This document shows, piece after piece, positions 13,872 through 62,608 of a DNA stretch of 64,000 bases. This DNA comes from an uncultured Roseburia sp. (GTDB lineage: Bacteria; Bacillota; Clostridia; Lachnospirales; Lachnospiraceae). Position 1 is the stretch's first letter. Every line of letters begins with the position of its first letter. The stretch covers positions 9,302 through 73,301 of the forward strand of contig CAYUKO010000001.1 in the NCBI GenBank assembly GCA_964445375.1. Direction: 5' to 3'. The position numbers and the translations under genes are program-made. Below the pieces are notes generated by a model. It did not search any database. It was given only the letters and a program-made list of their open reading frames with translations, and had not been told where the DNA came from.

Positions 13872-13884
13872 TTTTAACTCTCTC

Positions 13885-14298: not shown

Positions 14299-14322
14299 TA
14301 TTTGTTACCCCTTTCGTAGTTA

Positions 14323-42029: not shown

Positions 42030-43124
42030 TTAACGAATCAGTGTCTCCACATAATCCTTCCATTCCTGATAAATCTTCTGCGGATTCACACTGTTAACAA
42101 CACCTCTGGCCTGCATTCCTATGCGATTTGCAAGTTCTGTATCTGACAATACGCTTCTCATCGCCTCTGCAAGCTCTTCCTCTGCACCTGTTGGAACTAA
42201 AATCCCACCATATTGGTCAATAAGTAAGGCAGAACCGCCACATGGACAGTCTGTTGCAACACAAGGAAGCCCCATTGCCATTGCCTCAATAAGCGCATTC
42301 GGCATGCCTTCGTAATCAGAAGGAAGTACGAACAGTCCTGCATTTTTGATATCTTTTTCCAGTGTACTGCTTGCTCCCATAAAGCTTACTCTATCCGCAA
42401 TTTTATGTTCTATACAAAATGCTTCCAGCTCTTCTTTCACGCCATCGCTGCCAGCCTCTCCATATATCTGAAGCTGATACTCGGGGAATTCGTCACATAT
42501 TTTGGAAAATGCCCTAAGTAGAAGCATCTGATTCTTCTGTCTGGTAATTCTTCCTACCGTAACAATGGTTTTATCACGCTGCTTTGCCTGTGATTCCTGA
42601 TTGGAAAGGTATTTTTCATCCAGCGGATTCCAGATAATTCTTGATTTCTTCTGCAATTCCTCGTCAAAGAACTTCTTCGCATCGGGTGTCTGGAAGACAC
42701 AACCGACAGCCTTTTTTGTCATAAATCTGCATTTTTTCGGATAAGGAGCATAGTCCGTCCTCGGGTCATTTCGCACAGAAACCAGGAGCGGAATCTTTGT
42801 TCCGATAAGGCTATAAGCGCTTCTAAAATTTGCGTTTGCACAAAAGGATATTACAATATCCGGCTTCTCTTTCAGAATGGATTGGCGATAGCGAAGCATT
42901 CTGACAAGTGCCTTATAGATTCTGCCCTTTTTCTCCTCCTCTGGCGTAAGTCCTACATGGATACGTCTGACACGCTCATCCAGCGGATATTCCTCTTGGG
43001 CTGTCCATAATGTTGCCACTGCTACATCATTTCCATCCTGGGCAAAACAGCGTGACAGAATACTGATTACTCTCTCTGCTCCGCCCTTACCCATGCTGTT
43101 AATATGAAATAAAATCTTACTCAT
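42030..43124 (-). CDS. GT4 glycosyltransferase (PglH/PglJ/AmsD-like)
   Basis: KGGAERV, VSVRNDP, TVGRITRQKN, SDYEGMPNALIEAMAMGLPCVATDCPCGG; paralog of 39532..40623. Confidence 0.92.
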   Translation of the reverse strand: MSKILFHINSMGKGGAERVISILSRCFAQDGNDVAVATLWTAQEEYPLDERVRRIHVGLTPEEEKKGRIYKALVRMLRYRQSILKEKPDIVISFCANANFRSAYSLIGTKIPLLVSVRNDPRTDYAPYPKKCRFMTKKAVGCVFQTPDAKKFFDEELQKKSRIIWNPLDEKYLSNQESQAKQRDKTIVTVGRITRQKNQMLLLRAFSKICDEFPEYQLQIYGEAGSDGVKEELEAFCIEHKIADRVSFMGASSTLEKDIKNAGLFVLPSDYEGMPNALIEAMAMGLPCVATDCPCGGSALLIDQYGGILVPTGAEEELAEAMRSVLSDTELANRIGMQARGVVNSVNPQKIYQEWKDYVETLIR

Positions 43125-44979
43125 AAGTCTGATACCAACGCTGGAATACGAAAAGTGCCCATATCATACGGGAATAATTTGCTCCTGTTCCCGAACCAGC
43201 GTCTCCTGTCTCTAAATATTTTTCAATAAAAGAAGCTACATAGTCTGCATCAAACAATCCCTGCTTCTGTAAGTACTGCTTCTGTGTGAGATCAAGCAGC
43301 TGCTCCTTCAATGGACCTCTAAGCCACTTATCCAAAGGCACACCAAAGCCTACCTTTGGGCGGTCTAGCAAATCCTTTGGAATATAATCATAGGCAATGT
43401 CCTTAAGAATTCGTTTCTTATTGCCTGCCTGATACTTGAATTCGTGAGGAATGCTAAAGGCAAATTCCATAACATTCGTATCCAGTATTGGACATCTTGT
43501 CTCTAAGGAATATTTCATGGCTGCACGGTCTACCTTACACAGAATGTCTCCCGGAAGATAGGTGTCCATATCCAGTAACATCCTTCTCTCCTGCCAGTTA
43601 TCTTCGTTATACTTCGTCTCGAAATCGTAGTAGCATGGAATACCCTCTTTGCACACCATATTCTGTGCAACCTGTAAGTAATTGCCTGCAATAAACTGTG
43701 TCTTTGCCTCTTTATTACGGTTCTGTGCGATGACACGAACCTTAAATGGATAATGCTTCTCCAGATTACCAATTCTTCCGATTTGATGGGCAATTGCACC
43801 AAGCCCGTCCAGCTTCTGTGCCTGTTCCAGCTTCTTATAAATATTATAACCACAGAAGAACTCATCTCCACCATCACCGGAAAGTGCAACGGTAACATCC
43901 TTTCTTGCAAGCTCTGCGACAAGCATGGATGGAATCTGAGAACTGTCTGCAAAAGGTTCATCAAAATACTTTGGAATACTATCAACCAGTCTAAACATAT
44001 CATTTTCATCAATGTAAAGTTCCGTATGATGTGTTCCTAAATGCTTTGCAACCTGCTTTGCATAATCAGCCTCATTGTATTTTTCATCATGAAAGCCTAT
44101 CGAAAAAGTTTTCACCGGCTCAGACGATAAGGACTGTGCAACTGCTGTTACAAGAGACGAATCATATCCACCACTTAAGAATGTTCCTAATGGCACATCT
44201 GCTATCATTCTCTGTTTCACAGCCTTTTCCAAATGCTTTTTCAATTCTGCCTTTGCTTCCTCATAATCCTTAGGACCTGTTCCCTTTTTCTGATGATATA
44301 CTTCCTTCAAATCCCAATATTTCCATGTGGTAATCTGTCCAGCTGAGAATTTCAAAATGCTTCCCGGCTCAACCTGATAAACATTTTGATAGATGCTATC
44401 CGGCGCCTTAATATACTGTTGGTACAGGAAACGCCCTAAAATATCAGCGTTTACCTTCTTATGAAATCCGGGATATCCCATAATTGGCTTTAACTCTGAT
44501 GCAAAGACAAGATTCTCATCCTCATACCAGTAATACAATGGCTTTTTCCCGATTCGATCACGTACTAAGTAAATTTCATCATTTTCTCTATCGAACAGTG
44601 CAATGGCAAACATGCCATGAATTCTTTCGATACACTTGATTCCCCACTTCAGATATGCAGCAAGAATCACCTCGGTATCACAGGTGGAGTGAAACGGATA
44701 ATCGGAAAGTTCTTCTTTTAATTCCTGAAAATTATAGATTTCACCATTAAATACAATGGATACTCTCTGATCTGCGGAATGCATTGGCTGATGCCCTAAT
44801 GGCGACAGATCCAGTATGGATAATCTTCGCTGCGCCAGACCAACCTGATAACCATTTCTCATTGGATAGATTTCTGCTCCGCTATCATTTGGTCCTCTGT
44901 GATACATGGTATCATTGATTTCTCTTAACTTTTCTACTGTAATACCTTTTCTGGATACATAGCCACATATTCCACACAT
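43117..44979 (-). CDS. asnB: Asparagine synthase-like glutamine amidotransferase (polysaccharide amidation type)
   Basis: MCGICG, QRRLSI, FNGEIYN, RDRIGKKPLYY, LSGGYDSS, LSGDGGDEFF, KVDRAAM, RPKVGF. Confidence 0.95.
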   Translation of the reverse strand: MCGICGYVSRKGITVEKLREINDTMYHRGPNDSGAEIYPMRNGYQVGLAQRRLSILDLSPLGHQPMHSADQRVSIVFNGEIYNFQELKEELSDYPFHSTCDTEVILAAYLKWGIKCIERIHGMFAIALFDRENDEIYLVRDRIGKKPLYYWYEDENLVFASELKPIMGYPGFHKKVNADILGRFLYQQYIKAPDSIYQNVYQVEPGSILKFSAGQITTWKYWDLKEVYHQKKGTGPKDYEEAKAELKKHLEKAVKQRMIADVPLGTFLSGGYDSSLVTAVAQSLSSEPVKTFSIGFHDEKYNEADYAKQVAKHLGTHHTELYIDENDMFRLVDSIPKYFDEPFADSSQIPSMLVAELARKDVTVALSGDGGDEFFCGYNIYKKLEQAQKLDGLGAIAHQIGRIGNLEKHYPFKVRVIAQNRNKEAKTQFIAGNYLQVAQNMVCKEGIPCYYDFETKYNEDNWQERRMLLDMDTYLPGDILCKVDRAAMKYSLETRCPILDTNVMEFAFSIPHEFKYQAGNKKRILKDIAYDYIPKDLLDRPKVGFGVPLDKWLRGPLKEQLLDLTQKQYLQKQGLFDADYVASFIEKYLETGDAGSGTGANYSRMIWALFVFQRWYQTYE

Positions 44980-46182: not shown

Positions 46183-46968
46183 CTAATTCACCCTTTTCAT
46201 CAGCTTCATAGCGGTTACTGCAAGCTTTCCAAGAAGTGTATTACCAGTAAACACATTGTAATACGTAATCTTATCGCCACCGAATTTGAGCTTGAATTCA
46301 TCGATACCGTTTGGATTCTCAAAGTCTGAGATACCGCCCCAGTCATAACGAACGAGTCCCTTTTCCTTAAAGTACTTGATATCTTCCCAGTGCAGACGCT
46401 TATTGGCACGTCCAATCATGGACTGGTCTGCACTCTCTTCACGGAAGCAGGATGCAGAATGTAATAATCTTGCGTCTGTTTCATCACAGATGTAGGAATG
46501 GAACACAAGAATCTCTCCTTCATGTAAAACAGCAGAAAAGATAATCGCATCTGCTTCCAGATAACGGTCGATTGCTGTAATATTAAGCTTCGTATCAGAG
46601 CCCTTGGACTGATACATTCTCTCATAGATATCCGCAAAGGTATCTATTAAGCTTCGATCTGCCTCAATATCAGCCTTTGTATAGAATCTGACTTCGATAC
46701 CATCCTTCTCACTACGGCGAAACTGATACTTTACTGCCTTGTTGATATTGGTAAGCATATCTTCTTCTGACATCGTAAGGTCATTCATACAGGTATGATA
46801 TTCCTGCCAGCCTCGAAAGCTTCCCTTTGTCTGCTCTTTCTCCACACCATGAACAAAGAGAATATCTGCCTTTCTCTTCTGTTCAAGCAGCTCTGAAATC
46901 GTTGTTTTACCCGGATACCAGATTTGATTTATCTTCAAAAATTTCTTCTGATACATTACATCTATCAT
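46183..46968 (-). CDS. FemAB-like GNAT-fold acyl/aminoacyl transferase
   Basis: NDLTMSEED...KYQFRRSEKDG, ANKRLHWEDIKYFKEKG..YDWGGI, GIDEFKLKFGG. Confidence 0.72.
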   Translation of the reverse strand: MIDVMYQKKFLKINQIWYPGKTTISELLEQKRKADILFVHGVEKEQTKGSFRGWQEYHTCMNDLTMSEEDMLTNINKAVKYQFRRSEKDGIEVRFYTKADIEADRSLIDTFADIYERMYQSKGSDTKLNITAIDRYLEADAIIFSAVLHEGEILVFHSYICDETDARLLHSASCFREESADQSMIGRANKRLHWEDIKYFKEKGLVRYDWGGISDFENPNGIDEFKLKFGGDKITYYNVFTGNTLLGKLAVTAMKLMKRVN

Positions 46969-48957: not shown

Positions 48958-49932
48958 TTACAGGTTTGCCTTGTACCAGTCGATTGCAAGGGCAATACCC
49001 TTCTCAAAATCGTATTCCGGATCATATCCAAGTAACTCTCTTGCCTTTGAAATATCAGCATTAGAATGCTTGATATCTCCTGCTCTGTCTGGTCCAAAGT
49101 GAGGCTCTACGTCCTTACCAAGTGCCTTACAGAGATCATAATAAATATCAATCAGATATTCTCTTCCGCCGTAAGCTACGTTAAATGCCTGTCCTGCTGC
49201 ATCACTGGAAGCAAGACATGCCTTCATATTTGCTTCGATTACATTATCAATATAAGTAAAGTCTCTTGACTGCTTTCCATCACCGTTAATGGTTGGAACT
49301 TCTCCGTCTAAGAGCTGCTTAATAAACTTTGGAATAACAGCTGCATATGCGCCATTTGGATCCTGACGGCGTCCGAATACGTTGAAATAACGAAGTCCAT
49401 AAGTATCCAGACCATAAAGCTTCTTATAAAGCTTTCCATATTCTTCATCCACACGCTTTGTTAACGCATATGGAGAAAGAAGATTTCCTTCCTGTCCCTC
49501 TTTCTTAGGGAGTACCGGATGATCGCCATAAACGGAAGAACTTGATGCATAGACAAACTTCTTAACACCATTCTGTCTTGCAGCTTCCATCATATTTAAA
49601 GTACCCATAATGTTATTCTGCTCATAGAATAAAGGCATCTCAATACTTCTTGGAACAGAACCCCATGCAGCCTGATTCATAACGAAATCTACGCCCTCAC
49701 AAGCCTTCATACAAGTATCAAAATCCTTGATATCTCCCTTAATAAAGGTATAATTTGGTCTGTCCAACAGCATCTTTACATTTTCTTCACGGCCTGTAGA
49801 AAGGTCATCCAGACATCTTACCTGATATCCCATATCTGTTAATGCCTCACACAAGTTAGAACCAATAAAGCCAGCTCCACCTGTTACAAGAAAAACACTA
49901 TTTTCCGGAAATTTCAAATCCTTATATCCCAT
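48958..49932 (-). CDS. tviC: UDP-GlcNAc(A) C4-epimerase (TviC/WbpP-like SDR)
   Basis: TGGAGFIG, QAAWGSVPRSI, LSPYALTK, YFNVFGRRQDPNGAYAAVIPKF, RAGDIKHS. Confidence 0.9.
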   Translation of the reverse strand: MGYKDLKFPENSVFLVTGGAGFIGSNLCEALTDMGYQVRCLDDLSTGREENVKMLLDRPNYTFIKGDIKDFDTCMKACEGVDFVMNQAAWGSVPRSIEMPLFYEQNNIMGTLNMMEAARQNGVKKFVYASSSSVYGDHPVLPKKEGQEGNLLSPYALTKRVDEEYGKLYKKLYGLDTYGLRYFNVFGRRQDPNGAYAAVIPKFIKQLLDGEVPTINGDGKQSRDFTYIDNVIEANMKACLASSDAAGQAFNVAYGGREYLIDIYYDLCKALGKDVEPHFGPDRAGDIKHSNADISKARELLGYDPEYDFEKGIALAIDWYKANL

Positions 49933-49953: not shown

Positions 49954-51309
49954 CTACTTCTTTGCTGCCTTGCATATCTCATAACATTCTAACAATAACA
50001 GCAATCCTGCCAGATAAAACAGTGGCAGATTATATAACATATATCTGGAAATGCACTGAATCATCAGAGAAGTTCCAGTCACATTTCCAGTAATCATCAA
50101 CAACACAAGTGCCATAAAAGGTGCTGCCTTGGAGTCATGGTTCTTCATCCAGACAACTATCGTAAGTATGATTGCTATCAGATAAATCCCAAGTGCATAC
50201 CAATTAAATATCGGATGTACAAACGCCACACTTCGAATAAAGCCCATCAGAACCATAGCCACATAGTTATATGCGTACTTCATAAGTACCTGTGGTAACA
50301 GTTCACTCATGAGTGCAGAAGCTACCTTGTCCACTTCCACCATCATAAGCTGATAATCTTCTACCGTAACACCCGTGGTTTTGGTAACATACTCTTTTGC
50401 ACAAATGGCAAAATAATCAAAGTTCAGACTGTCATGACATGCCTCATGATGTGCTGCTCTTGCAAGCAGACCATCCGGCGAGAACTGGTAATTCATACTA
50501 TCTGCATAGGCTCTATCATAAATTTCATAGAAAAGCTCTCTTAAGCCTTCGTCTTCTATTGCTTCGCCATCTTCCCTGTCTGCTACATACAAAACATTGG
50601 CAACAGACATTGCCTTACCGGATGCGGTATCAACAAACAGTCCCTGTTCACAGTAATTATACGTCTTAATAAGCAATCCACGCCCTACAAAGGCAACAGC
50701 AAGCATAACGACGAATACCGCAATCTGCTTCCATTTCTTCTGTAAAAAGGCAATGAGCGCCATGGCAAGAAACCATACGAGAATCAGCACCATAAACTGT
50801 CCGCGTACCAAGGACACTCCAATCGCCCAGAAAAAGGCAAGCAAGCTATCCTTTCCGAGAATATTTCTACTCCAGACTGCCTTTAAAATATACAGAATAA
50901 AGAACAGATAAAGAGAATATGCGATTCCTTCTGATAACAGGGAGTTCGTTATAATCATCCCCGAAGAAGAAGCAAGTGGTGTCATAATGTGTGGTGCTAA
51001 TAAAATCACCATTACGACCGGAAGCATGTACCATTTCAGGTTCAACAATCTTCGCAACGCACATACAAATATCGTATTTGCCACAATCGCTAGAATATTC
51101 TGCACGATAATAATAAGCTCATAATGATGCTCTGGTGACAGAAACCGAAGAAACTGTATGAGCAAAGCATAAACAGGCTCTCTTGTTACAAACTGCATCT
51201 CATGCTGAAAGCTATCACCAAGATAAAGCGGTTCCCCGGTTATCAGCAGAAAACCGAAGAACACGGCAAACACCAAAAATATGGTTATATCGGTTATTCT
51301 TTTTCGCAT
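49954..51309 (-). CDS. Multi-pass membrane protein, putative GT-C glycosyltransferase
   Basis: LGDS...REPVY, NSLLSEGIAYSL, RYMLYN; TAATG-coupled to the tviB-like stop; paralog of 40620..42008. Confidence 0.65.
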   Translation of the reverse strand: MRKRITDITIFLVFAVFFGFLLITGEPLYLGDSFQHEMQFVTREPVYALLIQFLRFLSPEHHYELIIIVQNILAIVANTIFVCALRRLLNLKWYMLPVVMVILLAPHIMTPLASSSGMIITNSLLSEGIAYSLYLFFILYILKAVWSRNILGKDSLLAFFWAIGVSLVRGQFMVLILVWFLAMALIAFLQKKWKQIAVFVVMLAVAFVGRGLLIKTYNYCEQGLFVDTASGKAMSVANVLYVADREDGEAIEDEGLRELFYEIYDRAYADSMNYQFSPDGLLARAAHHEACHDSLNFDYFAICAKEYVTKTTGVTVEDYQLMMVEVDKVASALMSELLPQVLMKYAYNYVAMVLMGFIRSVAFVHPIFNWYALGIYLIAIILTIVVWMKNHDSKAAPFMALVLLMITGNVTGTSLMIQCISRYMLYNLPLFYLAGLLLLLECYEICKAAKK

Positions 51310-52625
51310 TATAATCTCCAATAAATATAGCCTGCATCCTGATATGCTTTCTTGTCTAAGATACCCTTAAGGTCTGTTAATACCTTTGTCTGGTTCTTAG
51401 ATGTATACAGCGCATCGATATCCTTCATTTCAAGGCTCTTAAAGGATTCATGTGCTACTGCAAGAATCACAGCATCACAATCCTTAATCTCTGCCATTGG
51501 AACGAATTCAATACCATATAATCTCTTAGCTTCTGCTGCATCTGCATTATCATCTGTTACAACAGCAGTAATGCCATATTCCTGTAATTCCTTGTAAATA
51601 TCAATAATCTTGGTATTTCTGGTATCCGGACAATTCTCCTTAAAGGTAAAGCCAAGAATAGCAACCTTGGCACTCTTAACCGGAATATCAGCCTTAATTA
51701 AATTCTTAACCAGATTCTCAGCTACATACTTGCCCATATCATCATTGATACGACGTCCTGAAAGGATAATCTGTGAGTGATAGCCTAACTGCTCTGCCTT
51801 ATAGGTTAAGTAATATGGGTCTACACCGATACAGTGTCCGCCTACAAGTCCCGGCTGGAAGTTTAAGAAGTTCCACTTCGTTCCTGCTGCTGCAAGTACA
51901 GACTTCGTATCAATGCCCATTTTATTAAAGATAATAGACAACTCGTTCATGAAAGCGATATTGATATCACGCTGGCTGTTTTCAATAACCTTAGCAGCCT
52001 CTGCTACCTTGATGCTTTCTGCACGGTATACACCTGCTTCTACCACAAGCTCGTACACCTTAGCTACCTGATCCAGTGTCTCTTCGTCCATACCGGATAC
52101 AATCTTGGTAATGGTTTCCAGTCTGTGTACTTTATCACCAGGATTGATACGTTCTGGAGAATAACCAATCTTAAAGTCTACACCACACTTAAGTCCTGAT
52201 TCCTTCTCTAAGATAGGAACACAGATATCCTCTGTTACACCTGGATATACGGTAGACTCGAATACAACGATAGAACCCTTTGTCAGATTCTGTCCTAAGA
52301 TTCTGCTTGCTCCTTCTACTGGTGTCAAATCCGGTGTGTGATCATCATTTACCGGTGTTGGAACTGCAACGATATGGAACTTTGCTTCCTTTAACTTTGT
52401 AGGATCAGCAGTAAACTCTACAGTTGTGTTCTTGATGACATCATCACCAACTTCATTTGTTGGATCAACACCCGACTTATATAAGTCAATCTTTGCTGCA
52501 TTCAGGTCGAATCCTACTACCTTAATCTTTCTTGCAAAAGCAACAGCGATTGGCATACCTACATAACCAAGTCCTACTAATGATACTTTCTCTTTTCCAC
52601 TTACAATATCTTCATATAAGCTCAT
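51309..52625 (-). CDS. tviB: UDP-N-acetylhexosamine 6-dehydrogenase (TviB/WbpO/CapL-like)
   Basis: [71 protein letters not shown]. Confidence 0.93.
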
Positions 52626-52672: not shown

Positions 52673-53767
52673 TTATGATTTACTTACTGCATGTATCTCT
52701 TCCATATAAGCATCTACTACCTGCTTACGGTCAAATTCGCGCTCCATCTTTGCTCTGGCATTACGTCCCATCTGTGCACGTTCCTCGCCGGAAAGCTTCA
52801 TAAAGCGTCTGAGTGCTTCTAATAATGCCTCTTTATCCCTTGCCGGGAATCCAAAGCCTGTGACACCATCCTCAAAGCCTTCCTGACAGCCCGGTATCTT
52901 AGATGCCAGTACCGGTCTTCCCGTAGCACTTGCTTCCAGAATGACATTAGACATTCCCTCATGATAGCTTGGCATCAACACAGCCGCTGCCTCTTTATAA
53001 TAGGGATGTATCTCTTTCTGATAGCCTATCAGCTCCAGAATACCATCCTGTTCATATTGTTCCATGATATCCTTATAATCATCCTCATAGTTGCCAACCA
53101 ATCGGAAAACAGCCTGCGGATATTCCTTGCAAATAGCCTTTGCCGCATAGAGTAATTCCTCAATGCCCTTTTCCTTCATGACTCTTCCAACATATAAGAA
53201 TATCATTTTCTCCTCTTTAGAAGAATATTCCTCAAAGTGATGTCTGTCAAGATTTACTCCTGAGCCAGGCACAAGCCTTGCCTTCTTCCCAAGGATTCCA
53301 TATTGCTTAAAGATTTCCTGATTCTTTTCATTTTGGAAAAAGATACAGGACGCCTTTTTCAGTGCCATCTTATATAAAAATACGACTATTCTTTGTACCA
53401 TACCGCCATTTTCGAAAGCAGAACCAAGTCCTGTAATGTTTACGATATAAGGGATATGCCTCATTCTACAGCAAAGATTGCCATAGATGTTCGGTTTTAT
53501 CGTATAGGTAAGCACCACATCCGGTTTTACCTCTTTCATAAGCTTCCAATACGCACCCAAAAGTCCTAAGTCTCTGACCGGGTTCATTCCTCGTCTGTCA
53601 ATTGGTGTATGATGAACCTTACATCCTTCCTCAGAAAGCTGTGGTACCTTTTCTTCATCGGGAAGACTTACGTGTACTTCATATTCCTTAAGCAATGTCA
53701 GTATCAGTTCGTTTCGAAAATCATACAGACCACTTGCCGAATTTGCAAGAATTAATATCTTCTTCAT
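52673..53767 (-). CDS. GT4 glycosyltransferase (PglA/CapM/WbuB-like, likely second sugar)
   Basis: RRGMNP, YTIKPNIYG, ITGLG, FFQN, PGSGV, PSYHEGMSNVILEASA. Start moved to MKKIL. Confidence 0.9.
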   Translation of the reverse strand: MKKILILANSASGLYDFRNELILTLLKEYEVHVSLPDEEKVPQLSEEGCKVHHTPIDRRGMNPVRDLGLLGAYWKLMKEVKPDVVLTYTIKPNIYGNLCCRMRHIPYIVNITGLGSAFENGGMVQRIVVFLYKMALKKASCIFFQNEKNQEIFKQYGILGKKARLVPGSGVNLDRHHFEEYSSKEEKMIFLYVGRVMKEKGIEELLYAAKAICKEYPQAVFRLVGNYEDDYKDIMEQYEQDGILELIGYQKEIHPYYKEAAAVLMPSYHEGMSNVILEASATGRPVLASKIPGCQEGFEDGVTGFGFPARDKEALLEALRRFMKLSGEERAQMGRNARAKMEREFDRKQVVDAYMEEIHAVSKS

Positions 53768-53780
53768 GTGTAACCTCTTC

Positions 53781-54749
53781 TTATTGTATGACATCCGTAA
53801 TCATGATTTCATTATATTTCATCATGACTTTATTGACTGCATAGCATCCAATCTGCTGCATATTCGCCTTGCCCTGCAAATTATTCTTAATAAGCGTCAT
53901 ATGGTCAGCACCACATGCATAGGCGTGCGGATAACCTCCGCCAAATCGGGGATTCACCTCTGAGAAATAGTACACACCGTCTTTTTCAAAAATATCAATA
54001 TCAATCTGTCCGCGGAAACCATTCTCCTTCACGAACTTCTCTATCTCCATAAAGAGTCTCTCATCGCGGAAGGAAATTGCCTTATCCGTTTCTCCTGCAC
54101 GCATGACAAGCTTCTTCTTGGTAAAAATAGAAACAATCTCGTTACTGATTAAATCAATATATACGTCTGCTCCAATCTCCTGACCAGTCATGAATTCCTG
54201 AATCATCATCTGCTCGCCATGTGAAAAGAGTAATTCTACCGTTTCCTTATCTTCCGCCTTGGAAATCTGTAAGCTTGCGCTTCCCTTCATAGGCTTTACA
54301 AATACCGGGAAACTGATTTCTCCCTTTTCCAAATCCTCATAAAAGGATTCCAAAGTGATATACGACTTCGCGCATGGATAAGCATGCTCCTTCATCCAGC
54401 AGTACATTTCCCATTTATTCAAGGTTCTCTCGCAAAGCTCATAGGAAGATTCGATTACCGTAACCCCAAGCTTTCGGAATTCTTCTTCGTGCTTTGCAAT
54501 CAGGGAAAGCTCCGGGTCAATCAACGAAAGTACTCCTGTTACATTCTCCTTACGGCAAATATCAAAAATATTCTCGATATATCCAGGTTCTGTAATTCTT
54601 GGTACGATGTAATGTGCATCTGCCTCATATAATGCCGGTGCATAAGGACTGCAATCGGTACAGATTACCTTTCCTTCTCCTGCAAAAGCCTCCTTAAAGT
54701 ACTGAACCACCTTATCTCTTGTGCCACAGCTTAAAATCAACAGATTCAT
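53781..54749 (-). CDS. ATP-grasp domain protein (carbamoyl-phosphate-synthase-like ligase)
   Basis: LSLIDPEL, FVKPMKGSAS, IQEFMTGQEIGAD, RAGETDK, SEVNPRFGGGYP. Confidence 0.85.
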   Translation of the reverse strand: MNLLILSCGTRDKVVQYFKEAFAGEGKVICTDCSPYAPALYEADAHYIVPRITEPGYIENIFDICRKENVTGVLSLIDPELSLIAKHEEEFRKLGVTVIESSYELCERTLNKWEMYCWMKEHAYPCAKSYITLESFYEDLEKGEISFPVFVKPMKGSASLQISKAEDKETVELLFSHGEQMMIQEFMTGQEIGADVYIDLISNEIVSIFTKKKLVMRAGETDKAISFRDERLFMEIEKFVKENGFRGQIDIDIFEKDGVYYFSEVNPRFGGGYPHAYACGADHMTLIKNNLQGKANMQQIGCYAVNKVMMKYNEIMITDVIQ

Positions 54750-54776
54750 GTGTTTACCTCTTCTTTCTGCTTCTAT

Positions 54777-55415
54777 TTATTCCTGTTCTTCCAACTTTGC
54801 CTTTCTGATTTCTGCAAAATTTCCTTCGACCTTGTTAGTATCTACTTCGATATCTTCTCGAACAAATACCTTCTTAATCGTAAGGAAAAATATCTTTACA
54901 TCCATTGCAAAGGTCAGATTTCTGACATATTCTACATCCGTTGCAAATCTCTTATCCCAGTCAAGAAGATTCCTTCCTCTTACCTGTGCAAGTCCGGTCA
55001 ATCCCGGTCTTACAGTATGTCTCAGTCTTTCTTCTTCTGTATAATACGGCAGATAACTGATTAACAGTGGTCTTGGACCTATAATACTCATATCGCCTTT
55101 TAAGATATTCCAAAGCTCCGGCAGTTCATCAAGGCTTGTTGCACGAAGGATTCTTCCAAATTTCGTAAGTCTAACGGAATCCGGAAGCAGATTGCCTTCC
55201 TCATCCCGCTCATCTGTCATGGAACGAAACTTACAAAGCTTGAAAATCTTCTCGTTATAGCCTGGTCTTTCCTGATGAAAGATAACCGGCGAACCAAGCT
55301 TACAGCGTACCAGTATTGCCACAATCAACAATACCGGGCTTAAAACGACCAACGCCACAAATGAAATTACGATGTCCAATAATCTTTTTATATACTTACG
55401 ATACATGGGCTTCAT
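54777..55415 (-). CDS. Monotopic phosphoglycosyl transferase (PglC/EpsL-like initiating sugar transferase)
   Basis: KRLLDI, QERPG, KFRSM, SLDELPELWNILKGDMSIIGPRP, VRPGLTGLAQV, DVEYV. Confidence 0.93.
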   Translation of the reverse strand: MKPMYRKYIKRLLDIVISFVALVVLSPVLLIVAILVRCKLGSPVIFHQERPGYNEKIFKLCKFRSMTDERDEEGNLLPDSVRLTKFGRILRATSLDELPELWNILKGDMSIIGPRPLLISYLPYYTEEERLRHTVRPGLTGLAQVRGRNLLDWDKRFATDVEYVRNLTFAMDVKIFFLTIKKVFVREDIEVDTNKVEGNFAEIRKAKLEEQE

Positions 55416-55420
55416 CCTTC

Positions 55421-56557
55421 CTATGCAAAGAGCTTACGTACTGTCTTGATAATAAGCTCCATATCTTCCGGTGTATTCTTAATATCACTTGGCATGCAGA
55501 CACCTCTGTTGAAGATATCCTCACCCACACTGATTCCTTCATCATTATGGTTAAAGAAATCACAATCTGCATATACCGGCTGGAGATTCATCGGCTTCCA
55601 GATAGGTCTGGATTCGATATTCTCAGCATCTAATGCATCCATGATGTCATTTGGTGTCACCTTACAGCCTTCCTTTAAGAGGATGCAGGATAACCAGTTA
55701 TTTGCATCGCCATCCGGATTCATCGGATTCATGGAGATCTCTTCCATATCCGCAAATGCTTCCTCATACTGCTTGTAAATGGCATTCTTTAACTTCTTAT
55801 GCTCTTCCATATGCAAGAGCTGTCCCCTGCCAATACCAGCCACAATATTACTCATGCGATAGTTATAACCAATCTCAGAATGCTGATAATGTCTTGCTGC
55901 ATCTCTTGCCTGTGTTGCCAGGAAGGTTGCCTTCTTGGTCAGTTCTTCTTCCTTGGAAACCATCATACCGCCGCCAGAGGTTGTAATAATCTTATTGCCA
56001 TTGAAAGAATAGATTCCGATTCTTCCAAAGGTTCCTGTCATCTGTCCCTTGTAAGTAGAACCAAGTGACTCTGCTGCATCTTCGATCATCGGTACATTAT
56101 GTTCTGCACAGATTTCCATGATTTCATCCAGCTTTGCCGGTGTTCCATATAAATGTGCCATAATCACTGCCTTTGGATTTGGGTATTTCTCAAACGCCTT
56201 TCTAAGTGCCTTTGGAGACATGTTCCAGGTATCCGGCTCAGAATCGATAAATACCGGCTTTGCCTTCTCATATGTAATCGGATTACAGGTTGCGGCAAAG
56301 GTCAGGGAAGATACAAATACCACATCATCCTGCTTGATGCCAAGCAACTTGAGCGCAAGATGAATGGCTGCTGTTCCTGCACTTAACGCAGCCGCATAAC
56401 CACAGCCTGTATATGCTGCCATTTCCTCTTCAAATTTATTTACATTTGGTCCAAGTGGTGCTACCCAATTGGTATCAAATGCCTCCTGTACAAATTTCTG
56501 CTCATCTCCATGCATGGTAGGGGAGGATAAAAAGATTCTTTTCTTCTGCTCTGCCAT
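55421..56557 (-). CDS. UDP-4-keto-6-deoxy-GlcNAc 4-aminotransferase (PglE/EpsN-like)
   Basis: IFLSSP, TNWVAPLGPNV, EDAAESLG, SFNGNKIITTSGGG, GYNYRMSN, ESRPIWKPM. Confidence 0.9.
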   Translation of the reverse strand: MAEQKKRIFLSSPTMHGDEQKFVQEAFDTNWVAPLGPNVNKFEEEMAAYTGCGYAAALSAGTAAIHLALKLLGIKQDDVVFVSSLTFAATCNPITYEKAKPVFIDSEPDTWNMSPKALRKAFEKYPNPKAVIMAHLYGTPAKLDEIMEICAEHNVPMIEDAAESLGSTYKGQMTGTFGRIGIYSFNGNKIITTSGGGMMVSKEEELTKKATFLATQARDAARHYQHSEIGYNYRMSNIVAGIGRGQLLHMEEHKKLKNAIYKQYEEAFADMEEISMNPMNPDGDANNWLSCILLKEGCKVTPNDIMDALDAENIESRPIWKPMNLQPVYADCDFFNHNDEGISVGEDIFNRGVCMPSDIKNTPEDMELIIKTVRKLFA

Positions 56558-56602
56558 AACTACAACGCCTCCAATTCTGAATTTATTTACAAAAAATATG
56601 CT

Positions 56603-58468
56603 TTACATGGTCTCTTTGCGTGGAATATAGGTCGGTACGATTTCCTGTATCAGCGGTCTGATATCGGAACATTCCTTATCCACTTCCTTTTTCAGCTCAT
56701 TAAGCTGTACAAAGAACTTGGACTCGTCAAATTCAATCGGCTTTCCGATATGAATCAGCTTATTCTCGGTATCCGTCAGTCCTTCCTCATTCATCAGAAG
56801 TTCTTCATAAAGCTTTTCTCCCGGACGAAGTCCTGTGAATTCTATCTTGATATCTTCGTCAACTTTATAACCGGACAAACGAATCAGGTTCTTGGCAAGG
56901 TCTAAAATTTTAACAGGTTCACCCATATCAAGTACGAATATCTCTCCACCCTTTGCGTAAACACCTGCCTGCAATACAAGAGAAACCGCTTCCGGTATCG
57001 TCATAAAATAACGAATAATGTCAGGATGTGTTACCGTAACCGGTCCACCTTCCATAATCTGCTTCTTGAATAATGGAATAACACTTCCGTTACTGCCAAG
57101 TACATTACCAAAACGAACTGCCACGAATTCGGTATCATAATGTCTGTTATAAGTCTGGATAATCATTTCACAGATACGCTTGGAAGCTCCCATGATATTG
57201 GTAGGATTGACTGCCTTATCGGTGGAAATCATAACAAACTTCTTGACACCGTTCTGCACGGCTGCCTGTGCCGTCTTCCATGTACCAAATACATTGTTCT
57301 TAATTGCCTCATTCGGACTGTCCTCCATCAGAGGCACATGCTTATGGGCTGCCGCATGGTAAATGATATCCGGATGATACTGCGCCATAATACTATTCAT
57401 ACGATTTGTATTTCGAACTGATGCAATCAATACAACTAAATCAAGATATGGATACTTATGCTTTAACTCCTGTTGAATCTCATATGCGTTATTCTCATAA
57501 ATATCTACAATAACCAACTGCTTTGGCTGATGTCCTGCGATCTGTCTGCAAAGTTCACTACCAATAGAACCGCCGCCGCCAGTTACCATAACAACCTTAT
57601 CTCTTACATAATTTAAAATGGAATCAAGATCAACCTTAATCGGATCTCTTCCAAGCAAATCTTCTACATCAACGTCACGAAGCTTGCTGACATTGACCTC
57701 ACCGTTTACCAACTGATAAATACCTGGTAATGTCCTAAGCTTACAATTGGTTTCCTGACAGATTTCTACCAGTTCCTTCATAGTTGCCCTGCTTGCAGAA
57801 GGAATGGCAATAATAATCTCATCAATTCCATAAAAAGCTGCATACTCTACAATTTTAGTACGTCCACCAACGATTTTAATTCCCTGAATGAAACGTCCCC
57901 ATTTCATGGAATTATCATCAATGATGCATTTAATCGTCATCGTACTGAAATTACTGTTTACGATTTCCTTGATTACGGTATTGGCTGCTTCTCCTGCACC
58001 AACCACCATTACCTTGATGCCATTTTTCTTATTCTGCTGCTTATGCTTGATTCCTCTAAGAATTCGATAAGAGAATCTGCCACAGGTCGTAATCGCAGTC
58101 AAAACCATGGCATACAGAAAATAATAGCTTCTTGGAATCGGATAATCCAGAATCTGAAAGCCACAGAAATTGATAAGAGCACACAAGAAACACGCAGCCA
58201 CAATATTCTGTGCCTCCGAAGTTCCTGCAAACGCCCACAGACTGTGATACAGCCTGAAGAAATAAAACACAAGTAATGTAACAACGACATTCATTACCAT
58301 AAAATTCCATGCCGAATTCAAATATACATCGGGAATTTCTTTATAATGCATCTCAAAACGAAACCATAATGGTGCAATACTTGATATGCATACTGTCATA
58401 ATGTCTAATATAATTAACACAATTCTTCTGTGTAGTAATTGTCTGTTCACCTTAGCCAGTATTTTCAT
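56603..58468 (-). CDS. Membrane-bound UDP-GlcNAc 4,6-dehydratase (PglF/CapD/EpsC-like)
   Basis: Four N-terminal TMs, VGAGEA, EDLLGR, TGGGGSIGSELC, HAAAHKHVP, STDKAVNPTNIMGASKR, RFGNVLGS, GLRPGEKLYEEL. Confidence 0.94.
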   Translation of the reverse strand: MKILAKVNRQLLHRRIVLIILDIMTVCISSIAPLWFRFEMHYKEIPDVYLNSAWNFMVMNVVVTLLVFYFFRLYHSLWAFAGTSEAQNIVAACFLCALINFCGFQILDYPIPRSYYFLYAMVLTAITTCGRFSYRILRGIKHKQQNKKNGIKVMVVGAGEAANTVIKEIVNSNFSTMTIKCIIDDNSMKWGRFIQGIKIVGGRTKIVEYAAFYGIDEIIIAIPSASRATMKELVEICQETNCKLRTLPGIYQLVNGEVNVSKLRDVDVEDLLGRDPIKVDLDSILNYVRDKVVMVTGGGGSIGSELCRQIAGHQPKQLVIVDIYENNAYEIQQELKHKYPYLDLVVLIASVRNTNRMNSIMAQYHPDIIYHAAAHKHVPLMEDSPNEAIKNNVFGTWKTAQAAVQNGVKKFVMISTDKAVNPTNIMGASKRICEMIIQTYNRHYDTEFVAVRFGNVLGSNGSVIPLFKKQIMEGGPVTVTHPDIIRYFMTIPEAVSLVLQAGVYAKGGEIFVLDMGEPVKILDLAKNLIRLSGYKVDEDIKIEFTGLRPGEKLYEELLMNEEGLTDTENKLIHIGKPIEFDESKFFVQLNELKKEVDKECSDIRPLIQEIVPTYIPRKETM

Positions 58469-58481
58469 AATATACTCCTAT

Positions 58482-61037
58482 CTACTCCACCTGCTGTGCT
58501 GTTTCCTCCCCACGCACATCAGGTAATTCACCCTTTTGTCTACGACTCCTTGGTTTCTGCATTAGCAGCATTTGTACGAAGAAAAATGCAAAGCCTGCCG
58601 GAATACATGGGTGAAACGCCCATTCTGTCAGGCTGGTAAAACCAAATACGATAATCAACGAAAATGGTACAAAATAAATACTATAATTTCTTGCATAATG
58701 ATATGCAAACATAATCGCTTTCCACAAGGTAACGGCACATAAAACCAAAAATGCCACACCTGCTATGAATCCAAAATCATAAGCTACCTGAATGTAGGAA
58801 TTATGTGCATGGGAATGCGAATATTGTTCTGTTTCCAGTGCCATCTTCTCATGACCACCAAGCTTTAGGTTCTTTATATAATCGCTAAATATCTCAAATC
58901 GTCCATTCGAAACATCCGACTGGCTTTCTGCCATCTCTTCAGAATCAGCAGCAGAAGGATATGATACAGGTAACGTATTCTTTCCTATGTATGCCAGAAG
59001 CATATCATCCATTCTCTCTTCTCTTGCTTCCTCTTCTTCAGATTGAAATCTTCCAAAGAACACATCAAAATAACGCTGTATGGTCATATATTTATCCGAA
59101 TCGACCTTATCGCCTTCATAAATCATATAAGAACGATCCTGTGGTTCAATCTCATAACGAACCGGATCATTTATCACTGCCGGCACAACCCTTATCACAG
59201 AATACATCAAAGGAAAGCTGATTACAATAGCAGCGCCAAGGAAAACACACTCTGTAACGATTTGTCTTACCTCTTTCTTATATACAATGGCTGCCAGAAG
59301 CACAACTGCTATCACATTGACAGCAAGCGTGAGCATCGCTGTTCTTGACATCGTAAACAGGATATTGGCTACCGCTGCAACCAGAACAAACAGTTCTATT
59401 TTACCTGTCTTCCACAATTTATCGCTATTTTTCCACTTTCCATATAGCTTTGCTAACGCAGCTCCCGTTACCACACCAAGATACATTCCTGTGCAGGCAA
59501 CCGTATGAAAGATACCATTATAACGATAGCGCATCCAGTAATGATATGGTCTGTGCATAAGGCAAAACAGCATGACAAACCCAAAACTTAACAAAATTCC
59601 ATTGGTAAAGTTCTTAAGCAGACGGCTTTTACCCGCAGCGCTCAAATCCATAAAAAGTATGGTCAAAAACGGAAGTGTCGCAACAAATACCCATACTTTA
59701 TCAAAGCGATTACTATACATAAATACAACAAAAACCAACCACACTGCAAAGAATGGCCAGTATATTGTCTTCCAAAAATCTTTCTTTACTTGTCTAAGTG
59801 TGTTTACAATCACAAGCCCCCACACAACCGTTACTGCTGCGGCAAGCTTTGCAAGGTACCATTCCTGTTCCCCTTCCACACCATGACAATAGGTTACAGA
59901 ACCAAGAAACCCTGCAGCGAGCCATATTCCACTCATATAATTACACAGTTCTTTCTCTGTATATATCATCAAAAAGGCGATGCCCAGAAAAATGAGCATC
60001 CATCTGGTATTCACATAATGATAATATTCCCTGTCCGCATTAACATACTGACAAAGAGCATAAAATAATAACCCAAAGCTAACTGTCTGAATATAATTGC
60101 GCCAAATAAGAGAACTCTGCTTATCTGCTCGAAGCTTTGATTTCTTTCTTTTGGCTCCCGGCATCCAGACAGCATAATAGAACCATAATACACCAACCAA
60201 AGAAGCTGCTCCATATACACATCGGTCTGCTATCTCTCCGCCAAAACCATTCCTGATGACAGCAAAAACAAAAAAAACAAATGCTGCAAGCGCCACAACA
60301 ACGCCAGTCACTCTTTTTCCATAAAAACAAAACGTTTCCAGATATTCTTCAAAATAATATAAAAGCCATACGATTCCTATATAGCAAAGAATTGCTATCA
60401 CAAGAATCAGTAAGTCATAACCTATGATATGAAATACCGTCAGTTCTCTGGTATAGTCAAAGTCTGCAACAAGAGAAGTATCCTCTGTGTAGATACCATC
60501 TATATAAAGAATGGTATTCTCTTCCTGTCCAAGACTTGCTTTATCCCCAACCGGCAGTCTAAGACTTCCTGTTGTTTCTTCCGGAATTATGATTTCATAA
60601 TAATAGTCTTTTTCCAGTTCTACATCCATATCCGGTGTTGCCAGAAATCCACCATTTTTCTCAAGAAGTCCAAAGGATTGTGTCTCTTCGTAAATACAGG
60701 AAAACGAATCGTTATAAAGTCGAAACATCACATAATCCTGATTCGCGTCGTACCCTTCTTCGCAAGACAGATAAACAAAAACTTCATGTAGATGCTCCTG
60801 CAAAAAACGAACCGCCTGCAGCTTTTTATCTGCACTGGTAAAGGTTTCACCCGAAAGATTCTTCGTAGATGAATACGCCTGCTGAACCGATTCTGTATGG
60901 CGTTGCACCAGACCAAGTGGCCAGACACGGCATAACAGAATAAAAGCAAGCGTGGCTATCACGATTTGAATAATTGTATTTCTTCTTACATGCTCAGAAT
61001 CATATGCAGCATGTTCCATCAGTTCCCTTGGATTCAA
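58482..61037 (-). CDS. Large O-antigen-ligase/Wzy_C-family membrane protein with an extra N-terminal extracellular domain
   Basis: More than 12 TMs, TMSRTA, SNGRFEIF, HAHNSYIQVAYDFG. The ORF extends to TTG 61109, but that stretch contains a promoter; the start is probably TTG 61037 or ATG 61019, after GGAG/AGGGA. Confidence 0.75.
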   Translation of the reverse strand: MNPRELMEHAAYDSEHVRRNTIIQIVIATLAFILLCRVWPLGLVQRHTESVQQAYSSTKNLSGETFTSADKKLQAVRFLQEHLHEVFVYLSCEEGYDANQDYVMFRLYNDSFSCIYEETQSFGLLEKNGGFLATPDMDVELEKDYYYEIIIPEETTGSLRLPVGDKASLGQEENTILYIDGIYTEDTSLVADFDYTRELTVFHIIGYDLLILVIAILCYIGIVWLLYYFEEYLETFCFYGKRVTGVVVALAAFVFFVFAVIRNGFGGEIADRCVYGAASLVGVLWFYYAVWMPGAKRKKSKLRADKQSSLIWRNYIQTVSFGLLFYALCQYVNADREYYHYVNTRWMLIFLGIAFLMIYTEKELCNYMSGIWLAAGFLGSVTYCHGVEGEQEWYLAKLAAAVTVVWGLVIVNTLRQVKKDFWKTIYWPFFAVWLVFVVFMYSNRFDKVWVFVATLPFLTILFMDLSAAGKSRLLKNFTNGILLSFGFVMLFCLMHRPYHYWMRYRYNGIFHTVACTGMYLGVVTGAALAKLYGKWKNSDKLWKTGKIELFVLVAAVANILFTMSRTAMLTLAVNVIAVVLLAAIVYKKEVRQIVTECVFLGAAIVISFPLMYSVIRVVPAVINDPVRYEIEPQDRSYMIYEGDKVDSDKYMTIQRYFDVFFGRFQSEEEEAREERMDDMLLAYIGKNTLPVSYPSAADSEEMAESQSDVSNGRFEIFSDYIKNLKLGGHEKMALETEQYSHSHAHNSYIQVAYDFGFIAGVAFLVLCAVTLWKAIMFAYHYARNYSIYFVPFSLIIVFGFTSLTEWAFHPCIPAGFAFFFVQMLLMQKPRSRRQKGELPDVRGEETAQQVE

Positions 61038-61075
61038 TGCGATAACCTTCTCCTTCCGTTGTTTTTGCTTATCGT

Positions 61076-61104
61076 AGTATAGCACAATCACTTGTTGAAT
61101 ACAA
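61076..61104 (-). promoter_or_regulatory. Sigma-A-like promoter (extended -10) for unit A
   Basis: TTGTAT (61104-61099), 17 nt spacer ending TGC, TATACT (61081-61076), immediately after the 61106 stop. Confidence 0.75.
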
Positions 61105-61105
61105 C

Positions 61106-62608
61106 TCAAGTATTTTCTGTCTTATGTCCTACTTCTTCGCGAATGACATACTGTGGAGAGTTATTAATACTGATGTAAATTCTTCCAACATACTCTCCTA
61201 CCAGACCTAGCATAATCATAATCATTCCACCAAAAAATACCAAAGCTGACATGAGGGCACTAAAGCCCATTGGTACATTCGGATTCACGAATCTCTTAAT
61301 AATCGTATAGATTCCATATAAGAATCCCACGCCCGCGCAGATACTTCCTGCTACGGTTGCAATACGAAGCGGCAGAATGGAAAATGCGGTAAATCCATTA
61401 AACCATAATCCTAACAGCTTCTTCATGGTATATCCGGATGCACCGATTTCACGGCTTCTATGATTTACAGGCACATTGGTAATGTTCTTGGTTGCACGAA
61501 GCACCAGACCTATAATATAAGGATAACTCTTCTCATAGGCCAGCATGCTCTCTACCACAAAACGCTTTGCCGCAAAGTAGCTTGTCAGATGCAAATCCTT
61601 CGGTTTCCCAAGCATTACCCTTGTCATGATATCATTCATCCAAGTACCAAAATTACGGAATGCGCTGTGTTTTTTAGACTCATACTGCGCATATACAACA
61701 TCGCTTCCCTCTTCGATTCCTGCAAGCAGCTTTCCAACCTCATTGGCGGGTGTCTGACCATCATCATCCAGACATACCACGATATCTCCATCTGACTTAC
61801 GAAGTCCTGCCATCAATGCCGAATGCTGCCCGAAATTCTTCGCCAGACTGATTCCTGTAATATTGTCATACTGGTTACAGAGCTTTCTAATCACCTCAAA
61901 GGTATTATCCGGCGAGCAGTCATTAATCAGAAAAATGTCATATTGATACGCAGTCAGTGTCTGCATCGTATCACGAATCTCATTGATCACGCCCTCTAAT
62001 GTCTTCTCGCTACGATAGCAGGGAATAATAAAACTAACCTTTTTCTTATCTGCCTGTTTACTCTCTTGTTCTGCCGGATTAATGGCGCCATAGAAAATCA
62101 AATCTTCATATTTTCCATCCAAAAACAGTTCATCCTTTAAATAAGACTCCAGCTTATAGCCTGCCTTCTCATGCATCTTACGACTTCCCTGATTGTAGCT
62201 TAACACCCTTGCCGTAAGCTTATGAAGCTTTAACGTAGAAAACGCATACTCCAAAACAAGCTTTGCTGCCTCTGTTCCGATTCCTCTTCCATAAGCTTCG
62301 TCCTCACCTAAAAAGATGCCTTCTTCTGCCTGACGGCTTGTCTCATTAAAATTCTGCAAATAGATCGAACCAAGCGGCTTATCAGATTGTAAGTCGCAGA
62401 TGATAAACTGAATCACCTGTCCTGTCTCCACTTTATTATGAAGCCAGTTTATATGCTCTTCCTTACTGATATTCTTACGGTAAATGAAATTCTCTACAAT
62501 CTTCCTGTCATTTCTCCATCGAACCACGTTATCCGTATCCTCTATGGTAATCGGGCGAAGATAAATCTGACTTCCCTTGATTCTTAAATCCTTTTGTACC
62601 TGTTCCAT
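61106..62608 (-). CDS. Fusion: PseH/RimJ-like GNAT N-acetyltransferase + GtrB/ArnC-like GT2
   Basis: GNAT part: YLRPIT, WRND, GRGIGTEA, LHKL, HEKAGY. GT2 part: KVSFIIPCY, DCSPD, NFGQHSALMAG, LDDDGQTP, two TMs, GEYVGRIY. Confidence 0.88.
   Translation of the reverse strand: MEQVQKDLRIKGSQIYLRPITIEDTDNVVRWRNDRKIVENFIYRKNISKEEHINWLHNKVETGQVIQFIICDLQSDKPLGSIYLQNFNETSRQAEEGIFLGEDEAYGRGIGTEAAKLVLEYAFSTLKLHKLTARVLSYNQGSRKMHEKAGYKLESYLKDELFLDGKYEDLIFYGAINPAEQESKQADKKKVSFIIPCYRSEKTLEGVINEIRDTMQTLTAYQYDIFLINDCSPDNTFEVIRKLCNQYDNITGISLAKNFGQHSALMAGLRKSDGDIVVCLDDDGQTPANEVGKLLAGIEEGSDVVYAQYESKKHSAFRNFGTWMNDIMTRVMLGKPKDLHLTSYFAAKRFVVESMLAYEKSYPYIIGLVLRATKNITNVPVNHRSREIGASGYTMKKLLGLWFNGFTAFSILPLRIATVAGSICAGVGFLYGIYTIIKRFVNPNVPMGFSALMSALVFFGGMIMIMLGLVGEYVGRIYISINNSPQYVIREEVGHKTENT

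Follow-up and report, generated by a model that had tools for sequence, protein, structure and literature searches.

A contiguous stretch of 64,000 nucleotides from an uncultured Roseburia sp., referred to below as the window, was analysed with respect to an ATP-grasp gene that lies among genes for the synthesis of an amino sugar. The window carries 52 genes, all on the minus strand in a single run with a GC content of about 0.39 and a strong GC skew, and nearly all of them are glycan-biosynthesis genes of a surface-polysaccharide locus of gut Lachnospiraceae. Positions 53781-58468 (minus strand) encode a dehydratase, an aminotransferase and a small phosphoglycosyl transferase (PGT) that resemble PglF, PglE and PglC, respectively, as well as an intact ATP-grasp protein, after which a GT4 glycosyltransferase gene follows:

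56603-58468, minus strand: PglF/WbpM-type membrane-anchored UDP-GlcNAc 4,6-dehydratase (DH), 621 amino acids (Polysacc_synt_2, E = 3e-125)

55421-56557, minus strand: PglE/LegC-like pyridoxal phosphate (PLP) aminotransferase (AT), 378 amino acids (DegT_DnrJ_EryC1, E = 8e-96)

54777-55415, minus strand: PglC-like small monotopic PGT, 212 amino acids (Bac_transf, E = 8.5e-63)

53781-54749, minus strand: predicted ATP-grasp carboxylate-amine ligase, 322 amino acids (PylC-like_N, E = 1.6e-41, and ATP-grasp_3; NCBIfam NF009406)

52673-53794, minus strand: GT4 glycosyltransferase, 373 amino acids (Glycos_transf_1 / Glyco_trans_4_2)

The genes of this set are tightly packed with intergenic gaps of -14 to 45 nucleotides. 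The gap from PGT to ATP-grasp is 27 nucleotides, and the start of the GT4 gene overlaps the stop of the ATP-grasp gene by 14 nucleotides. The position directly after the PGT gene is hereafter called the slot.

The best solved relative in the PDB was C. jejuni PglF/WlaL (5bju, E = 1.4e-95) for the dehydratase, C. jejuni PglE (1o61, E = 4.5e-92) for the aminotransferase, and the di-N-acetylbacillosamine (diNAcBac)-1-phosphate transferase PglC (8g1n, E = 8e-70) for the PGT. The dehydratase contains the TDK...MGASK catalytic motif that defines the PglF type (PMC8987622), and the aminotransferase scored 389 bits against the LegC-family model TIGR04181, just below the cut-off of 420. As judged from the sequences, the dehydratase is predicted to make the UDP-4-keto-6-deoxy-N-acetylhexosamine (HexNAc) intermediate, the aminotransferase to make UDP-4-amino-4,6-dideoxy-HexNAc, of which the configuration at C4 is not readable from sequence, and the PGT to move the sugar-1-phosphate onto undecaprenyl phosphate.

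When the set was compared with the canonical diNAcBac pathway, PglF-, PglE- and PglC-type enzymes were present, and a PglD-type hexapeptide N-acetyltransferase was not found in the window. No match to Hexapep or PglD_N was detected among the 52 complete window open reading frames (ORFs) of at least 100 amino acids; for 30 of these the scan was limited to E ≤ 1e-5, at which weak Hexapep matches could be overlooked. A six-frame hexad scan of the whole 64-kb window also detected no hexapeptide repeats, and the same scan caught four of four genuine PglD controls. The initial annotation had described a PglF-PglE-PglC-like set lacking PglD, with an ATP-grasp gene between the PGT and GT4 genes and no hexapeptide-repeat gene in the window; the domain, PDB and gene-order evidence agrees with the former, and the two negative scans with the latter.

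The ATP-grasp ORF is full-length and preceded by the ribosome-binding site AAGAGG. Its product matched NF009406 (PRK12767.1-5, "carbamoyl phosphate synthase-like protein") with 501.4 bits (cut-off 271) over positions 3-321 of the 327 in the model, and matched 2pn1 from Exiguobacterium with E = 3e-91, 43-46% identity and a TM-score of 0.88. It is thus a clear member of the NF009406/2pn1 family, although the Exiguobacterium loci have no adjacent PGT gene. The AlphaFold model showed the classical three-domain ATP-grasp fold with a pLDDT of 92.5, and no membrane segment was predicted in it, as in a soluble protein. The Foldseek search of this model yielded, after 2pn1, biotin carboxylases, PylC, PurK/PurT and an L-amino acid ligase, all with probability 1.00, and no functionally informative close neighbour besides 2pn1. 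PylC (3-methylornithine--lysine ligase) and the L-amino acid ligases have in common with the window protein the PylC-like N-domain, the ATP-grasp fold and a reaction, predicted for the window protein, in which the carboxylate of an amino acid forms an amide with an amine, but they are only about 15-20% identical to it, with a TM-score of about 0.71, and use another acceptor.

Residues K152, E264, N266, R268 and G270-272 were invariant over 41 sequences spanning 27-100% identity, and are located in the FVKP strand (Lys) and the SEVNPRFGGG motif (Glu, Asn, Arg and the GGG loop). These Lys, Glu/Asn and Arg residues have roles in the binding of ATP and Mg in ATP-grasp enzymes in general. Because it is full-length with respect to NF009406, retains the invariant motifs and gives a confident model of the ATP-grasp fold, the 322-residue protein looks intact and catalytically competent. 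Its nearest sequences come from metagenome-assembled genomes of Lachnospiraceae, and more than 8000 relatives were obtained from one search.

The gene neighbourhood of the family was examined by scanning species-representative genomes with 2pn1. At least 562 loci encoding relatives were identified and the best 80 were analysed; the linkage counts are based on the 74 of these 80 in which ORF calling recovered the ATP-grasp gene. A PGT gene was located within four genes of the ATP-grasp gene in 61 of the 74 loci and an aminotransferase gene within the same distance in 54, indicating that the arrangement in the window is not a chance one; a GT4 gene came after the ATP-grasp gene in 40. A TviB-like dehydrogenase gene was found within four genes in only 36 loci, essentially the Lachnospiraceae subset. 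The ATP-grasp gene is linked to amino-sugar and PGT genes, and not to uronic-acid genes. The hosts of the related loci include Lachnospiraceae, other Clostridia, Bacillales (Bacillaceae), Bacteroidota including Muribaculaceae, Saccharibacteria and Elusimicrobia. In Lachnospiraceae the conserved module consists of a Wzy-like protein of 875 amino acids, DH, AT, PGT, ATP-grasp, GT4, TviB, TviC, DUF2334, GT4 and GT4.

The co-occurrence of ATP-grasp and pglD in pglFEC loci, proposed as a check in the initial annotation, was examined in a metagenome scan anchored on the aminotransferase of the window and so unbiased as to the gene that follows. Among the 57 loci with enough flanking sequence, 40 carried ATP-grasp only, 11 PglD only, one a formyltransferase only, one both PglD and ATP-grasp, and four neither, and the two main occupants behaved as near-exclusive alternatives. 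PglD was detected by Pfam in the slot of the window-type module in three loci (L132, L164 and L160), and Formyl_trans_N was detected in the slot of an otherwise syntenic Lachnospiraceae-type module (L131, 2216-2977), which from its sequence predicts a 4-formamido priming sugar in that locus.

At least three ATP-grasp subtypes, all scoring above the NF009406 cut-off, occupy the slot of the module found in the window. The window-type subtype showed 76% identity to the window protein in L118 and L121 and 91% in L087, the second 53-60%, and the third 39-42% (L119, L120, L127, L129 and L183). Since the third subtype is located in loci of which the flanks are closest to those of the window (DH 84%, TviB 92%), the content of the slot has been exchanged independently of its flanks.

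A parallel exchange was observed in the B. cereus group, in which the eps locus consists of a conserved run of Wzz, kinase, CpsB, GalU, DH, AT and PGT genes followed by one of two slot contents. One variant carries a PglD_N+Hexapep protein of 206-215 amino acids of the NeuD/PglB/VioB family (231 bits), and the other an ATP-grasp protein of 327 amino acids together with a HAD hydrolase (L090-L092 and L103-L110 versus L093-L102 and L111-L115). Between the two variants DH, AT and PGT are 97, 94 and 93% identical, respectively. Replacement of PglD by an ATP-grasp enzyme, as proposed in the initial annotation, was thus seen in both the Lachnospiraceae module and the B. cereus group.

The type of ATP-grasp enzyme was then compared with its neighbours on 41 distinct profiles of identity to the window proteins. 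ATP-grasp identity correlated with PGT identity (Spearman rho 0.62, p = 1.6e-5), and no correlation with DH, AT or TviB identity was found among these 41 profiles. Because the slot enzyme is exchanged with two N-acyl transferases and co-varies with the PGT that would accept its product, it is best explained as an N-acylase of the 4-amine. Its most likely function, proposed with good but not full confidence, is to N-acylate UDP-4-amino-4,6-dideoxy-HexNAc on its 4-amine at the expense of ATP, before the sugar is passed to undecaprenyl phosphate. As read from the sequences, the PglF-like dehydratase and the PglE-like aminotransferase would convert UDP-GlcNAc into UDP-2-acetamido-4-amino-2,4,6-trideoxyhexose. 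The ATP-grasp enzyme would then activate a carboxylic acid as an acyl phosphate, with conversion of ATP to ADP, and form an amide with the 4-amine, doing the acetyl-CoA-dependent job of PglD with a non-acetyl acid. Undecaprenyl phosphate would next receive the N-acylated sugar-1-phosphate from the PglC-like PGT, and the GT4 enzyme encoded by the overlapping gene is predicted to add the second sugar to this N-acylated priming sugar on undecaprenyl diphosphate. The initial annotation had allowed either an amino or hydroxy acid on the 4-amine or a free amine; from the slot swap, a non-acetyl N-acyl group is most likely.

The hexapeptide N-acetyltransferases PglD, NeuD and PglB resemble the slot enzyme in locus position and presumed amine and are interchangeable with it in related loci, but they use acetyl-CoA and a left-handed beta-helix, a fold unrelated to that of the window-type enzyme with its ATP-dependent acyl phosphate. 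Two further systems are precedents for the chemistry, and hence the "new linker sugar pathway" of the initial annotation is not new in kind. In Neisseria meningitidis PglB2, an ATP-grasp domain is reported to replace the acetyltransferase domain of PglB, resulting in GATDH (4-glyceramido-2-acetamido-trideoxyhexose) in place of diNAcBac; the PglB and PglB2 alleles are described as mutually exclusive, and the activity of PglB2 itself as only proposed, from genetics and mass spectrometry (Chamot-Rooke et al. 2007). As in the slot swap, PglB2 is a mutually exclusive alternative to an acetyltransferase within an otherwise identical diNAcBac pathway; the difference is that the ATP-grasp domain is fused to the C-terminus of the PGT in Neisseria, whereas the genes in the window are separate.

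In B. cereus ATCC 14579, Pat (BC5273) and the ATP-grasp enzyme Pyl (BC5272) are reported to make UDP-Yelosamine, i.e., UDP-FucNAc-4N-(2)-oxoglutarate (Hwang et al. 2014, J Biol Chem 289:35620). According to published accounts, a small PGT is encoded directly downstream of Pyl in this strain, and the neighbourhood link between ATP-grasp and small PGT genes has already been pointed out in print. Pyl is described as N-acylating the 4-amine of UDP-4-amino-6-deoxy-HexNAc with 2-oxoglutarate and ATP, the reaction predicted here for the window enzyme with another acid possible. Both are stand-alone ATP-grasp proteins encoded in a polysaccharide operon beside a 4-aminotransferase and a small PGT, but Pyl is a protein of 41.9 kDa against 322 amino acids in the window, and its gene precedes the PGT gene, whereas the window ATP-grasp gene comes after it. 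Pat reportedly uses L-Glu, releasing the 2-oxoglutarate that Pyl then ligates. A literature search for further characterised ATP-grasp sugar N-acylases found none beyond PglB2 and Pyl.

B. cereus was not represented among the 80 best relatives of 2pn1 in the species-representative scan. A tblastn search of plasmids matched Priestia and E. coli plasmid loci, and with the Priestia ATP-grasp protein a B. cereus group ATP-grasp protein of 327 amino acids (P0169) was found, which is 32% identical to the window protein and has the sibling model NF009405 as its best model. The locus order of P0169, DH-AT-PGT-ATP-grasp-HAD, differs from the Pat-Pyl-PGT order of ATCC 14579. In three contexts of B. cereus dehydratase alleles, only the PglD or the ATP-grasp plus HAD variants were found; the order published for ATCC 14579 would add a third variant to these two of the B. 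cereus group.

The nature of the acid to be attached was considered from the accessory genes of the relatives, which are variable and lie between the PGT and ligase genes or just past the latter. These helpers include a PLP enzyme of the D-cysteine-desulfhydrase/ACC-deaminase family, sometimes fused to a GNAT domain, a free PseH-like GNAT, a D-2-hydroxyacid dehydrogenase, a HAD phosphatase, and an enzyme similar to diaminopimelate (DAP)/ornithine decarboxylases, of which the best model, the N-citrylornithine decarboxylase FslC, was matched below its cut-off. Such enzymes would be what the supply or tailoring of an attached amino, hydroxy or oxo acid needs. The decarboxylase is carried by L088 and L089, in which ATP-grasp is about 80% identical to that of the window; the window subtype itself has no adjoining helper. 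A fold-III PLP decarboxylase requires a free alpha-amino-acid end. From the decarboxylase in these relatives and the 2-oxoglutarate of Pyl, a dicarboxylic amino or oxo acid attached through its distal carboxylate, for instance Glu, Asp or 2-oxoglutarate, is offered as a low-confidence guess.

On the E. coli IncR plasmid NZ_LR890610 (L086, 6646-8996), the genes for DegT, GNAT, PLP enzyme and ATP-grasp are arranged in this order inside a dTDP-sugar O-antigen-like cluster, which has one aminotransferase, no PGT and no uronic-acid genes. A cassette of GNAT, D-cysteine-desulfhydrase/ACC-deaminase-family PLP enzyme and ATP-grasp was also seen to recur as a unit in L033, L044, L069, L125, L130, L048, L060, L070 and L086. 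Occurring in both the UDP-sugar PGT loci and the dTDP-sugar plasmid cluster, it may be how N-acetyl-aminoacyl amino sugars are made.

Several points weigh against N-acylation by the slot enzyme. Biochemistry is lacking for every member of NF009406, the family name being a placeholder, and 2pn1, the sole solved member, is a structural-genomics entry without function. The likeness of the window enzyme to Pyl (BC5272) and the C-terminal domain of PglB2 is drawn from their published descriptions. A single human-gut species contributes about 25 of the 40 loci with ATP-grasp only, so that the counts are not independent. The identity of GT4, 68/52/44% by ATP-grasp class, showed a trend between classes only, with few loci in two of them and an overall rank correlation of nil. 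PglD and ATP-grasp are found together in one locus (L171), the 64-kb window covers only a part of the genome in which pglD could lie, and the window encodes a GNAT that scores near the cut-off of PseH. The last three of these points bear on an alternative involving one of the neighbouring genes, which are as follows:

61106-62608, minus strand: PseH-like GNAT fused to an ArnC/PgfS-like GT2 glycosyltransferase, 500 amino acids (Acetyltransf_3, E = 3e-25; Glycos_transf_2, E = 2e-28)

58482-61109, minus strand: polytopic protein of 875 amino acids, one region of which weakly resembles Wzy_C/O-antigen ligases (Wzy_C, E = 9.5e-6, below cut-off); its place upstream of the module is conserved in related loci

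51309-52625, minus strand: TviB-like UDP-GlcNAc 6-dehydrogenase (NF011729 TviB, 488 bits, cut-off 592)

48958-49932, minus strand: TviC-like UDP-GlcNAcA (N-acetylglucosaminuronic acid) 4-epimerase, for supply of GalNAcA (N-acetylgalactosaminuronic acid) (NF011728, 293 bits, cut-off 760; Epimerase, E = 1.7e-59)

In this alternative, the GNAT of 61106-62608 or a PglD encoded elsewhere in the genome acetylates the 4-amine to give ordinary diNAcBac, and the ATP-grasp enzyme acts otherwise, on a precursor or another residue. PseH N-acetylates a UDP-4-amino-4,6-dideoxy-HexNAc, and the fusion protein matched the PseH model TIGR03585 with 91.4 bits against a cut-off of 93.1, its other domain matching the ArnC-like model NF007986 with 183 bits. 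However, GNAT and PglD are both absent nearby in most loci with this ATP-grasp gene, and the GNAT-GT2 fusion is not linked to the slot, as it is found with two or more ATP-grasp subtypes and is missing from others. On the plasmid of E. coli, the cluster in which GNAT and ATP-grasp stand with one aminotransferase suggests that the two enzymes act in series, and fits acetylation by GNAT of the attached amino acid. The GNAT domain in the window may possibly be such a partner or an alternative N-acetylase of the 4-amino sugar, but acetylation to ordinary diNAcBac is considered unlikely.

A second alternative retains the same N-acylation and shifts its timing: the PGT transfers the sugar with its amine free, and the ATP-grasp enzyme then acylates the sugar on undecaprenyl diphosphate at the membrane. 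The gene order, PGT and then ATP-grasp, is in line with this possibility, and two-domain proteins, P0183 in a related subtype and PglB2 in Neisseria, point to a possible close contact of the two activities. The ATP-grasp protein is, however, soluble-looking, without a membrane segment in its model, and its analogues PglD and Pyl, the latter as given in the title and summary of its report, act on UDP-sugars; moreover, a PGT that has to recognise the acyl group would be expected to co-vary with ATP-grasp, as is observed. PglD acts on the UDP-sugar in its own pathway, and the lipid-linked timing is judged very unlikely. P0183 is a JGI metagenome protein of 545 amino acids of the Bacillaceae subtype that contains Bac_transf and ATP-grasp in one chain; it is known from one metagenome contig, and might be a frameshift artefact since the genes of its relatives overlap by 14 nucleotides.

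In the least likely alternative of the three, the substrate of the ATP-grasp enzyme is a uronic acid, GlcNAcA or GalNAcA supplied by the TviB/TviC-like enzymes, whose carboxylate is activated and joined as an amide to an amine or amino acid. ATP-grasp chemistry is compatible with this reaction, and TviB- and TviC-like genes are present one to four genes downstream both in the window and in many relatives from Lachnospiraceae. This alternative was rejected on the linkage counts of the 74 loci (TviB near in 36, PGT in 61), since linkage to amino-sugar and PGT genes and not to uronic-acid genes argues against amidation of GalNAcA, as do the retention of the PGT/aminotransferase neighbourhood where TviB and TviC are missing (e.g., in the B. 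cereus, Priestia and E. coli plasmid loci), the interchange with PglD and formyltransferase, both of which act on amines, and two AsnB-like amidotransferases in the window that already cover uronamide formation. The C. jejuni capsule glucuronamide ligases are enzymes that amidate uronic acid in this way. The AsnB-like glutamine amidotransferases are encoded at 43117-44979 and 37482-39365 (minus strand), and are probably WbpS-like formers of uronamides on the GlcNAcA or GalNAcA supplied by the TviB/TviC-like genes.

With N-acylation of the UDP-4-amino sugar as the preferred function, what is new here is the assignment of the very large and functionally unnamed NF009406 family to a known theme of N-acylation, and no new kind of pathway. 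The slot swap gives this family a testable assignment as N-acylase of UDP-4-amino-6-deoxy-HexNAc, and predicts non-acetyl bacillosamine-type sugars in many gut commensals. Slot-swap evidence should also aid the assignment of substrates to uncharacterised small-PGT clusters and provides enzymes for the synthesis of unusual UDP-sugars. The priming sugar, at the reducing end, sets which PGT, glycosyltransferases, polymerase and ligase can act, and is a strong antigenic determinant.

A wider proposal, made tentatively and with somewhat less than an even chance of being correct, is that the slot after the PGT gene is a diversification cassette of interchangeable N-acylases with matched PGTs in gut Lachnospiraceae and other Firmicutes, in which the window subtype makes a chemically undescribed N-acyl bacillosamine-type sugar. 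The occupants of such a cassette would be PglD, formyltransferase and at least three NF009406 subtypes, some with PLP enzyme, decarboxylase, dehydrogenase, HAD or GNAT helpers, and the sugar of the window might be, for example, a gamma-glutamyl, beta-aspartyl or oxo-acid amide. If this is true, the cassette would contribute to the antigenic variation of the capsules of commensals.

Several other features were noted within the window. An ORF upstream of the GNAT-GT2 fusion, located from 62651 to beyond 64000 (minus strand) and incomplete in the window, encodes a large membrane protein, of which the counterpart has 602 amino acids in L081 and L087; relatives carry a DUF6020 protein with a GT2 enzyme that has no GNAT domain. 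Together, the fusion and the membrane protein look like a CsbB/YfhO-style system for side-chain glycosylation from undecaprenyl phosphate-linked sugar, with a built-in amino-sugar N-acetylase. The region 12882-15417 (minus strand) encodes an FdtA-like 3,4-ketoisomerase (13885-14298) and a second DegT aminotransferase (14323-15417), and this pair is followed by a weakly FemAB-like protein of 329 amino acids (12882-13871) in place of the hexapeptide protein FdtC; this region may provide the window with a second amino sugar bearing an aminoacyl in place of an acetyl group. Another FemAB-like gene, for 261 amino acids at 46183-46968 (minus strand), is inserted between two GT4 genes that adjoin each other in the module of the relatives, and is lineage-specific.

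A gene with AAA-ATPase_like and PD-(D/E)XK (PDDEXK_9) domains is located in mid-locus at 25973-27559 (minus strand), between glycosyltransferase genes. A TagD-like cytidylyltransferase fused to a GFO/IDH/MocA oxidoreductase, 449 amino acids in total, is encoded at 1668-3017 (minus strand), and several unrelated loci (L007, L036 and L058) also have homologues close to the ATP-grasp cassette.

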